DNA of 64,000 nt from Curvularia clavata. Taxonomy: Eukaryota. This document shows positions 34,220 through 35,863 of this stretch, piece by piece. The position numbers and the translations under genes are program-made. The notes under the pieces are model-generated. The model ran no database searches and was not told where the DNA came from. It was given only the letters and a program-made list of their open reading frames with translations. Numbering within the stretch: the stretch's first letter is position 1; each line of letters opens with the position of its first letter. The stretch spans positions 372,001 through 436,000 of the forward strand of contig CP089278.1 of NCBI GenBank assembly GCA_023920165.1, read 5' to 3'.

Positions 34220-35863
34220 ATGGACGTCTTCTCAACCGTGTGCAACAGTATTCATCTCATCCACGTGACATTTATCTTCGTCCGGGGTGTCATCGATGAT
34301 TACAAGAACTATGACACAGAAACGCAACAACTCAAGAGTAAAATTAGTCATGAATTGGTGTTCTTTGAGCAATTCCAGGAATTCTTTGTTAAAGGAACAC
34401 TCGGCGCAGCATTTTTTGAAAAGCAACCTCAATATGTTCAGGAGGATTGCACAAGATGCTTAAGTACCCTAGATGACACGCTCGCCAAATATCGGGAACA
34501 GGCACGGAAACACGGGATCGATCTCCTACTACACAGCGCCACTGCAGGCGCTCAACAACCGGCTACGCAATCTGTGACGTCGAGTGATCCGTCATTGGGG
34601 TTTCGAACACGTATGAAGCAGAAGATCATTGAGCTGAACAAGCAAGGCATCAAATGGTCCTTGCATGACAAGAAAGAGCTTGAGAAGCTCACTAAGCTGG
34701 TACGGGCTTGCATGAAGCGGTTAAGGGAGACAATGAATTTGATGGCTATGATCGCACAAGTCGACTTATCGATGCTTCATGACAAGGCACTCGAAGAAAC
34801 AGCAAAACGACGAGCAGCTGCAAATTCTTCACCAGGTCCTGAATTTCAGCCGATGGTTGGCTCCATTGATGTCGCGGTTTTTGACAGCGGGAAGTTTGGC
34901 GTTGCTGAATACTCAGAAGTGTCTTTCGCCAAGCAAGTCATCTACGAAGTCCGCAAATACGACACCCTACAAGAAAAGGCTGCAGAATCCAATGATACGC
35001 ATTTGCTATGTGCACTCTTAGAGCCTGTGCGCAAACTAGCATGGTGGCTAAAAGCAGCTCGGTTTCAGGAAGGGATAGATGTCTCAGATGACCTTGGAAG
35101 TGTTGGACCGACTCTGGGGCTGGATTTTTTCGGCTATCTAGATCAGCCTGACAACCTCCGAACAATCTTCATGTATGAGCTGCCTTTTTCGGACCACAGT
35201 GATGGTTCAGACGGTTCGATAACGACGCTACATGACTTGATCGATCGCCAGAGCTCCAACGAAGCGCAAGTCGCGCGGCTAAGTTTGGGCAATCGATTCT
35301 ACATCGCACATGCAGTGGCGGTGACACTACTCAATATACACAGCTCTTCATGGGTGCACAAAAATATACGCAGTTCCAGCTTTGTTGTACAGAAACAGAA
35401 AAACCTAAAGTTTCCGTTGCGCCAAGACCGGTTGATTCCTTTCATTACGAACTGGGAAGTTGCAAGACCTGAAGGTGATCCATCACTCTTTGCAGAAGAG
35501 GATAGCATTGCGGCCAATTTCTATCGCCACCCGGATCGACAGGGCCGGCCGACTCAGTTTTTCAACTACAAGCATGATTTTTACTCCTTGGGTGTAGTGC
35601 TTATAGAGATTGGCCTATGGTCCACTGTCGAGAAGTTGTTTAAACAACAAATGACCCTGAAACTAGTCGCCCGGGGACATCTTAGAGAGTGGTGGAGATC
35701 CAAAGGCAGGTCGCAGACTATTGCAACCATGGGAGAAGCTTACGTAGAAGTTGTCGATTTTTGCATCTTTGATCGGCCTGGGCTACGAACTGCTAAGGAA
35801 GAGAGACTTCTGGAGTTTAGGAACAAAGTTGTAAATGTGCTAAGTCAGGCTATTGTTCTATAG
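34220..35863 (+). CDS. 547-aa HeLo/HeLo-like domain plus degenerate kinase (pseudokinase)
   Basis: ACA-ATG at 34220. Hydrophobic N-terminal helix, then DDYKNYDTETQQLKSKISHELVFFEQF and IKWSLHDKKELEKLTKLV (HeLo-type KW-x3-DK-x2-L). C-lobe motifs RFYIAHAVA, WVHKNIRSSSF, NWEVAR, YRHPDRQ, DFYSLGVVLIEIGLW. Confidence 0.85.
   Translation: MDVFSTVCNSIHLIHVTFIFVRGVIDDYKNYDTETQQLKSKISHELVFFEQFQEFFVKGTLGAAFFEKQPQYVQEDCTRCLSTLDDTLAKYREQARKHGIDLLLHSATAGAQQPATQSVTSSDPSLGFRTRMKQKIIELNKQGIKWSLHDKKELEKLTKLVRACMKRLRETMNLMAMIAQVDLSMLHDKALEETAKRRAAANSSPGPEFQPMVGSIDVAVFDSGKFGVAEYSEVSFAKQVIYEVRKYDTLQEKAAESNDTHLLCALLEPVRKLAWWLKAARFQEGIDVSDDLGSVGPTLGLDFFGYLDQPDNLRTIFMYELPFSDHSDGSDGSITTLHDLIDRQSSNEAQVARLSLGNRFYIAHAVAVTLLNIHSSSWVHKNIRSSSFVVQKQKNLKFPLRQDRLIPFITNWEVARPEGDPSLFAEEDSIAANFYRHPDRQGRPTQFFNYKHDFYSLGVVLIEIGLWSTVEKLFKQQMTLKLVARGHLREWWRSKGRSQTIATMGEAYVEVVDFCIFDRPGLRTAKEERLLEFRNKVVNVLSQAIVL

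Follow-up and report, generated by a model that had tools for sequence, protein, structure and literature searches.

A HeLo-type pseudokinase gene and its divergent kinase neighbour in Curvularia clavata: a possible MLKL-like death module

Two divergent genes and the HeLo-type domain

We describe here a gene of the fungus Curvularia clavata located in contig CP089278.1 (assembly GCA_023920165.1, positions 372,001 to 436,000), a stretch of 64,000 nucleotides which we call the window and whose own coordinates are used throughout. The gene product, the window protein, joins a HeLo-type N-terminal domain to a kinase-like C-terminal domain, and an earlier note on this DNA had proposed that the latter is a pseudokinase degenerate in the same way as MLKL. 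Every motif quoted there was found in the frame of the open reading frame (ORF) 34220-35863(+), each in its place, and the span given for the finding, 34860-35863, is the kinase-like domain from residue 214 to the stop. A gene for an active-type kinase lies next door on the opposite strand. The features considered are as follows.

34220..35863, plus strand: whole gene of HeLo and pseudokinase, from the first ATG, 547 amino acids (aa) plus stop, intron-free (ORF and translation)
34220..34759, plus strand: HeLo-type helical domain, residues 1 to about 180 (profile match to 2wvo; Pfam HeLo in relatives)
34226..34297, plus strand: hydrophobic helix at the N-terminus, residues 3-26, which may insert in membranes (helix in the AlphaFold2, AF2, model; hydrophobicity)
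34760..34855, plus strand: helical linker between the two domains, residues about 181-212 (AF2 helix 189-202; brace-like by position only)
34856..35860, plus strand: pseudokinase domain, residues about 213-547 (Pfam DUF7580 in relatives)
35354..35389, plus strand: catalytic-loop remnant VHKNIRSSSFVV, residues 379-390, with N382 at the HRD aspartate (translation, hhalign)
35450..35458, plus strand: NWE at the DFG position, residues 411-413 (translation, hhalign)
35483..35485, plus strand: S422, candidate phospho-acceptor of the activation segment (Ser/Thr conservation)
35504..35506, plus strand: S429, second serine of the activation segment, not conserved (family counts)
33526..34219, no strand: shared divergent intergenic region, 694 bp, candidate bidirectional promoter (gene coordinates)
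30277..33525, minus strand: neighbour gene, 1082 aa, TPR-like repeats and a C-terminal active-type Ser/Thr kinase (ORF; Pfam Pkinase)
30361..31152, minus strand: kinase domain of the neighbour, residues 792-1055, catalytic residues intact (Pfam Pkinase, 1.4e-41)
31180..33318, minus strand: repeat part of the neighbour, TPR-like, residues 70-782, possibly its sensor (TPR_12, 4y6c, Atlas)

The pseudokinase gene belongs to a large family, of which 3249 representatives were found at E<=0.001, and the relatives that carry a name are all Pezizomycotina (Glutinoglossum, Trichoglossum, Cirrosporium, Penicillium decumbens, Lindgomyces and Annulohypoxylon), which marks the window as nuclear DNA of a fungus. 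Residues 1-544 of relative P0002 align with residues 1-545 of the window protein (51% identical where matched, E 7e-173), and as such alignments run end to end, no intron is needed in the gene. A pseudogene or a chance ORF is ruled out by this end-to-end conservation (E 1e-172). The AF2 model of the whole protein (predicted local distance difference test, pLDDT, 74; predicted template modelling score, pTM, 0.72) is helical in its N-terminal half and takes a kinase fold from about residue 205. For counts by position we used alignment A1, which also gave the family profile and consists of 28 relatives picked for full-length coverage, and a wider set of 176 proteins (the query, 29 matches of the first search and further matches), where positions were counted only if aligned.

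The N-terminal part of the family profile matched the HeLo structure of HET-s, 2wvo, at E 3.4e-5, and the MLKL four-helix bundle (4HB) gave no sequence match to the profile (0.4 bits). Pfam HeLo (PF14479) was above its cut-off in relatives P0013 (1.3e-9, 38.6 bits), P0014 (31 bits) and L003 (8.9e-10). An ESM Atlas look-up of residues 1-205 retrieved HeLo clusters by features (0.95 and 0.92) and PF17111-type fungal N-terminal domains by structure (template modelling score 0.49/0.70). At the level of the HeLo group, an N-terminal domain of executioner type thus appears to be present. According to a review, those members of the HeLo group that have been studied act as death domains which target membranes (PMC12881547). 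In the window protein the 19-mer of highest hydrophobicity starts at residue 3 (mean Kyte-Doolittle value 1.69), as it does in 13 of the 28 relatives, and the helix of residues 3-26 may enter membranes. At position 34383 the contigs of three sequencing runs (X1, X2 and X19) all have A and not T, which by codon reading changes F55 of the HeLo domain to Y.

The C-terminal domain is covered in relatives by DUF7580 (PF24476), a Pfam family without described function. The window protein itself gave no DUF7580 match at E<=1 and so stays below the gathering cut-off of 27 bits, and full-length relatives of 33-35% identity exceed it (P0004 with 27.8, P0005 with 39.6 and P0007 with 33.9 bits). As relatives that pass were found at E 1e-79 to 1e-172, the window protein belongs, by sequence, to the same homologous group. 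Among 80 representatives that were scanned (ranks 3 to about 85 of the 150 listed), DUF7580 was present in 64 (E<=0.001) and HeLo in 19, 15 were without any match, and no other N-terminal family was seen by Pfam. In relatives that carry both HeLo and DUF7580, the C-lobe is weakly matched by Pkinase or PK_Tyr_Ser-Thr; for the window protein Pfam gave no kinase match. Our literature search returned no paper using the name DUF7580.

The neighbouring kinase has intact HQDIKPDN, DFG and APE motifs. In all 18 neighbour kinases aligned, the residues of HxDxKxxN, DF, the Glu of APE and that of alpha-C do not vary, and at least 90% keep the beta3 Lys. Its N-terminal ~700 residues match PDB entry 4y6c, a TPR protein of kinesin-light-chain type from Podospora (E 4.9e-4); Pfam TPR_12 is just below threshold (29 vs 30.1 bits), and the Atlas places the repeat region in TPR clusters at 0.94-0.95.

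Contigs assembled from sequencing runs cover each gene separately: X1 at 30127-33749 and 34168-36015, X2 at 30077-33584 and 34172-36200, and X19 at 34162-35822. These are three runs from three studies, and that their contigs represent RNA is a guess. They are colinear with the window, without joints, and leave 33750-34161 uncovered; pieces of run X20, the fourth, span the intergenic gap (33825-34185). This gives a weak hint that both genes are transcribed, intron-free and served by a shared divergent promoter. In this small sample of four runs the contigs differ from the window by 4-9 nucleotides per gene (>=99.5% identity), and no highly divergent alleles were seen.

The dead kinase domain and its likeness to MLKL

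The loss of the catalytic residues, claimed in the earlier note for the loop VHKNIRSSSFVV at 35354 (no HRD aspartate) and for the DFG position at 35450 (now NWE), was upheld by translation and by hhalign. In the alignment of the family's C-terminal region with eight canonical kinases (98.8% probability), HKN lies on HQD and NWE on DFG; N382 takes the place of the HRD aspartate and N411-W412-E413 that of DFG, so the catalytic and the metal-binding aspartate are both Asn. In A1, H380 is present in 28/28, K381 in 26/28 and N382 in 24/28 sequences (Ser in 3, Gly in 1). Over 171 relatives the HRD-Asp position holds Ser in 88, Asn in 64, Gly in 13 and Asp in 3, i.e. it is not Asp in 168 of 171, and the commonest triads of the wider set are HKS (79) and HKN (55), followed by HKD (3), HRN (2) and HGN (2). 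The DFG position (n=170) reads GFE in 51, GWG in 26, NFE in 24, DFE in 18, DWG in 7, GFD in 7, DFG in 2 and NWE in 1. GFE is thus the commonest replacement of DFG in the family, with which the window protein shares only the Glu. Three residues of the C-lobe are near-invariant: R416 (167/169), H437 (168/169) and D453 (167/169). The C-terminal domain is, as judged from sequence, a kinase fold without catalytic residues.

The N-lobe is less firmly placed, as its portion of the hhalign alignment has zero confidence. The glycine-loop remnant SGKFG described earlier is present (residues 223-227), but its glycines are not conserved (G224 in 8/28, G227 in 5/28); VIYEVRK, described as beta3, is likewise present (residues 240-246), and both assignments rest on predicted secondary structure. 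AF2-predicted strands put beta3 at residues 236-246, and position 245 is the probable equivalent of the beta3 lysine; it holds Arg in the window protein and, over 121 relatives, Lys in 55, Arg in 47 and His in 17. Within residues 243-245 (34946-34954) of the predicted beta3, E243, two residues ahead of the basic position, is Glu in 118/121, and in the predicted alpha-C helix R271 is Arg in 60 and Lys in 10 of 135. Together, E243, the basic residue 245 and R271 may form a non-canonical salt-bridge arrangement.

As to the two serines of the activation segment WEVARPEGDPSLFAEEDSIAANFYRHP, which had been put forward as possible phospho-switch sites, one fits and the other does not. The position of S422 is Thr in 22 and Ser in 5 of the 28 A1 sequences, and Thr in 94 and Ser in 63 of the wider set, i.e. 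157/169. The family consensus Thr falls on chain index 352 of the mouse MLKL entry 4btf, which minus a five-residue tag is S347, flanked in the alignment by S345 and T349; we take S345, S347 and T349 to be the phosphosites of mouse MLKL, with the numbering matched to the printed profile alignment. S429, in turn, stands at a position which is Ser in 1/28 (Glu in 14, Asp in 10) and in 11/169, and mostly Asp or Glu. S422 is therefore the candidate phospho-acceptor, a conserved Ser/Thr of the activation segment.

The likeness to MLKL was assessed by phmmer and profile searches of 177,635 distinct PDB sequences. With the window protein alone, mouse MLKL ranked first by phmmer (E 0.0012). With the family profile, mouse MLKL was again first (4btf at 6.8e-7, 4m68 at 1.3e-6), followed by IRAK4 (5.6e-6) and rat MLKL (9.8e-6); the MLKL chain 6vc0 came at 0.011 and seven human MLKL sequences only at E 0.2-0.3. 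The other matches among the 60 listed of 76 at E<=2 include LIMK1 and plant receptor kinases, and no chain named plant MLKL was among these 60. The mouse MLKL strings quoted in the earlier note, LHRNISSSSFLV and GFE, are printed in the HMMER alignments. On one hand, mouse MLKL is the best PDB sequence match, beyond chance; on the other hand, IRAK4 is close behind and human MLKL is hardly matched. Taken with the LIMK1 and plant receptor kinase matches, these scores lead us to regard the domain as TKL-like (tyrosine kinase-like), with MLKL and IRAK4 as nearest solved relatives by sequence.

The structural comparison was equally divided. Full-length mouse MLKL is first by Foldseek (E 4.5e-7, 548 columns), and ordinary kinases follow at nearly equal E; no MLKL chain is among the 50 matches listed by VIA-align. 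The structural ranking of the predicted model does not single out MLKL. We also considered that the MLKL match might be due solely to a rodent-specific run of serines in the catalytic loop, for which the weak human MLKL scores speak in part, and against which the family-wide GFE speaks in part. Overall, the observation behind the earlier note was confirmed, and its interpretation was partly supported.

Kinase genes at related loci

To the two genes of the window we compared 80 metagenome loci encoding relatives of the pseudokinase, which form 60 clusters at >=90% DNA identity. When the neighbour was used as a tblastn query, kinase domains came up immediately upstream, on the other strand, in L002-L006 and three more loci. 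Its TPR part matched nothing in the 80 loci by tblastn, and therefore the partner does not keep one repeat type, which is TPR in the window and ankyrin in other loci. Of the 137 flanking ORFs listed, 73 were scanned with Pfam, omitting L005 (a duplicate of L004) and small overlapping ORFs. The scan showed an adjoining protein kinase gene in L002 (two), L003, L004, L006, L007 and L080, with ankyrin repeats in the kinase ORF or in same-strand adjacent ORFs in L002, L003, L004 and L007, and an ankyrin ORF running off the contig in L011. The second kinase gene of L002, at 3633-7043(-) behind the first, encodes 1137 aa with 10 Ank_2 stretches. An ORF of the same locus at 15924-16865(-), about 4 kb downstream of the pseudokinase, encodes SLATT_fungal (PF18142), a two-transmembrane effector domain of a family tied to conflict systems.

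For a systematic count, a local hidden Markov model (HMM) built from eight neighbour kinases was run against all stop-to-stop ORFs, with E<1e-12 taken as strong. A cluster was informative if it reached 2 kb or more beyond the inferred gene start on the upstream side, and 3.5 kb upstream on the opposite strand were considered. A strong kinase ORF lies divergently upstream in 26 of the 32 informative clusters. The seven loci from which the HMM was built match it by construction; they had been found first by tblastn and Pfam. In a confirming scan of 64 ORFs (26 neighbours, 12 ORFs with a pseudokinase match and 26 flank ORFs), Pfam Pkinase was present in 26/26 of the further neighbours found by the HMM. 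The HMM gave no strong match in the 147,424 bp that are over 5 kb from the genes, and with the rule-of-three upper bound as background the binomial tail is 9e-25, a value that overstates independence, the loci being related. Four more clusters have a kinase nearby, downstream in L007, L042 and L080 and upstream on a short flank in L026.

The six informative clusters lacking a strong upstream kinase are L008, L011, L018, L062, L063 and L064. Downstream of the gene in L008 there is a Pkinase fragment, and upstream in L063 an ankyrin ORF. In L018 (a HeLo and DUF7580 gene), L062 and L064 no kinase gene is present within 6-9 kb upstream or 4-10 kb downstream, and the partner of these members, if any, must lie elsewhere.

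Over 29 pairs, kinase distances and pseudokinase distances are correlated (Spearman 0.365; 0/2000 permutations), and so the pair travels and diverges as a unit. Adjacency is kept at pairwise distances of up to 0.78 for the pseudokinase and 0.84 for the kinase.

The remainder of the window is of mixed content. Two tandem Ty3/gypsy-type long terminal repeat (LTR) retrotransposons with a common middle LTR occupy 7875-21996; their three 300-nt LTRs, at 7875, 14786 and 21697 (6911-nt spacing), are 100% identical, and in each unit the ORFs of gag (696 aa) and pol (1503 aa: protease, reverse transcriptase, RNase H, integrase, chromodomain) are intact. The identical LTRs and open frames suggest that these elements were active very recently. 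A Ty1/copia-type element at 1566-4478(-) has gag (Retrotran_gag_2) and pol (integrase, RVT_2) ORFs. The retrotransposons are separated from the kinase gene by an AT-rich block at 22001-30000 (GC content 0.30-0.35 vs about 0.45-0.50 elsewhere), which contains no ORF of at least 120 aa and may be degraded repeat DNA. On the other side lie a cytochrome P450 at 42623-43895(+), in ORF pieces 42623-43090 and 43287-43895 that presumably form one intron-bearing gene, an alpha/beta hydrolase at 48901-49665 and an ABC-F-type ATPase at 60383-62425.

A possible kinase-controlled executioner

We propose that the two genes form a death module working like RIPK3-MLKL, with a repeat-bearing kinase in control of an executioner made of HeLo and pseudokinase. 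Of the readings considered this has the most support, and we hold it to be about as probable as its negation. In this scenario, the dead kinase domain would hold the membrane-attacking HeLo domain in check at rest. The neighbour would sense a cue through its repeats, which are TPR-like here and of ankyrin type in most relatives, and its kinase would become active and phosphorylate the activation-segment Ser/Thr of the pseudokinase, S422. The pseudokinase would then change its conformation and release the HeLo domain, whose hydrophobic N-terminal helix would insert in the membrane, and the cell would die in a regulated way or mount a related defence response. The sequences show how the domains are arranged, that the kinase-like domain has lost its catalytic residues, that S422 is conserved and that the two genes stay together and co-diverge. 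That the partners bind, that S422 is phosphorylated, that a membrane is attacked and what sets the module off are the parts of the scheme that we infer.

A number of observations weigh against this scheme. The HeLo match of the window protein itself is sub-threshold in Pfam (E 0.045, 14 bits vs a cut-off of 23.2), and the model of the N-terminal part is of low confidence (pLDDT 54.8 for residues 1-205 folded alone with 8 sequences). The window protein has the rare NWE triad and, at position 245, where 55 of 121 relatives have Lys, an Arg. IRAK4 does nearly as well as mouse MLKL in the profile search, the human MLKL scores are poor, and MLKL is missing from the VIA-align matches listed. Among the 60 of 2759 PDB matches listed for the neighbour-kinase profile, the nearest are EGFR, JAK, STK33, BRAF, ULK, LRRK2 and IRAK4 and there is no RIPK; by sequence the neighbour kinases are closest to TK/TKL kinases, plus STK33 and ULK, and are not specifically RIPK-like. 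As six of 32 clusters are without a strong upstream kinase, adjacency is not obligatory; the L080 neighbour presumably resembles a housekeeping kinase, so that adjacency there may be coincidence, and shared descent alone could give the co-variation of the two genes. Finally, plant MLKLs show that proteins of this type can confer immunity without cell death (10.1101/681015).

This last point is also in favour of a different, rather unlikely explanation, that the dead domain binds the neighbour kinase and tunes it allosterically or scaffolds it, in the way of known pairs of kinase and pseudokinase, the HeLo-like part only localising the complex to the membrane, with signalling and not killing as the output. 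The conserved pairing and co-divergence of the kinase and pseudokinase genes would fit it, R416, H437 and D453 are near-invariant as one would expect of a binding surface, and in plants MLKL immunity is separable from cell death (10.1101/681015). However, the N-terminal domain belongs to the HeLo group of membrane-targeting death domains (PMC12881547), its first helix is hydrophobic, and a conserved Ser/Thr at the position of an MLKL phosphosite suits a substrate better than a regulator.

We consider it quite unlikely that the pseudokinase is a guarded decoy, mimicking a host kinase at which antagonists (bacteria, mycoviruses, other fungi) aim their toxins or effectors, so that foreign binding or modification, and not the neighbour, would free the HeLo domain, the neighbour being the guarded original or a co-sensor. 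An identity of 16% between the pseudokinase and the neighbour kinase in the hhalign alignment would be poor mimicry, although a dead kinase does lie beside a live one of broadly the same TK/TKL-like type. A partner whose repeats (TPR, Ank) are of the kind that fungal immune receptors typically carry and the size of the family, as common for immune genes, would agree with a decoy. Against it, the activation-segment Ser/Thr is kept over very deep divergence, which suits an endogenous switch, and variation among the four runs, a small sample, is little.

An allorecognition (het-type) pair, in which kinase and pseudokinase alleles of different strains, when mismatched, would trigger HeLo-mediated death after hyphal fusion, seems to us improbable. 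A HeLo protein with a tightly linked partner is the classic design of incompatibility systems such as HET-S/NWD2 (PMC12881547), and the locus is about 8 kb from a transposon-rich, AT-rich stretch; yet the few differences per gene between the run contigs and the window, in a small sample, do not look like divergent alleles, and the mechanism would equal that of the proposed module, with the trigger alone being different. Least credible is a relic of tandem duplication, in which a copy of the adjacent kinase would have decayed and been joined to HeLo, and the closeness of the two genes would mean nothing functionally: two protein-kinase folds do stand side by side, but adjacency persists over the distances given above, orientation is kept in 26/32 clusters, the intact ORF is conserved over its whole length, and the dead-site motifs are conserved and not random, so we disfavour it.

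The proposed kinase-controlled module has much in common with vertebrate MLKL: an N-terminal helical executioner of the HeLo/4HB group, helices, a C-terminal dead kinase, an H-x-N catalytic loop (HRN in mouse, HGN in rat; HKN or HKS in the fungi), a Ser/Thr at the position of the mouse S345/S347/T349 cluster and, likely, a dedicated active kinase as partner. The rodent forms GFE and HRN/HGN also occur in the fungal family, where GFE is modal. There are differences as well, since the fungal partner is encoded next door, bears TPR or ankyrin repeats and is not RIPK-like by sequence, the fungal N-terminal domain matches HET-s HeLo and not the MLKL 4HB by sequence, and the window protein has NWE and R245. 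MLKL keeps its beta3 Lys and binds ATP. Plant MLKLs (AtMLKL1-3) share HeLo, brace and a pseudokinase without phosphotransfer residues; their activation-loop serines modulate killing, and an activation-loop phosphomimetic enhances it, but they have a C-terminal serine-rich tail, and the available part of the paper does not mention a linked partner kinase gene (10.1101/681015).

Among fungal systems, HET-S and HELLP, which are controlled by NOD-like receptors (NLRs) via amyloid templating, have in common with our pair a HeLo-type N-terminal domain and an executioner gene beside its controller gene; here, in contrast, the regulatory C-terminus is a pseudokinase and not a prion-forming motif, and the controller would be a repeat-bearing kinase and not an NLR. 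In pairs of fungal gasdermin and protease a pore-forming executioner also lies beside its activating enzyme, which is often fused to repeats (PMC12881547). There, the gasdermin is activated by proteolysis, whereas we propose phosphorylation of a HeLo-fused pseudokinase. As for earlier descriptions, fusion of some HELL domains to kinase or pseudokinase domains is noted in one figure legend (PMC12881547). A 2022 survey of effector domains of fungal NLRs treats MLKL-like N-termini and, in its available part, not the HeLo-pseudokinase fusion (PMC9815663), and a dermatophyte genome paper mentions Pezizomycotina-specific kinases including pseudokinases (PMC3445971), which might overlap with DUF7580. 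No description of the kinase/HeLo-pseudokinase gene pair was found in a search that mostly left out subscription journals, so an earlier one is possible. The fused architecture thus appears to be known in passing only, and the conserved partner kinase to be the new point, a variant on the theme of the MLKL-type executioner.

We regard as doubtful a further idea, that the pair is the fungal counterpart of RIPK3-MLKL by descent, the HeLo-pseudokinase fusion, the H-x-N/S loop, GFE and the phospho-switch having been inherited from a fungal-animal (perhaps plant) ancestor and not reinvented.

Studies of regulated cell death in fungi have connected HeLo domains with the 4HB of MLKL. The known fungal controllers of HeLo executioners are NLRs acting via amyloid templating, and the literature searched holds no fungal equivalent of the kinase branch of necroptosis. 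The locus and its relatives offer a testable candidate, with a dead kinase on HeLo, a conserved candidate phospho-site and a presumptive activating kinase with sensor repeats of its own. If the module works as proposed, RIPK3-MLKL logic would become testable in genetically simple fungi, Pfam DUF7580, with its thousands of members, would gain a function, and kinases would be a third type of controller of fungal death executioners, beside NLR/amyloid and protease/gasdermin. The pair also bears on the question of a single or repeated origin of MLKL-type execution. Should the idea of common descent be true, kinase-triggered execution of the necroptosis type would be ancient, and the many and varied two-gene modules of Pezizomycotina, with repeat-domain (TPR/ankyrin) kinases as the sensors, would be its surviving form there.

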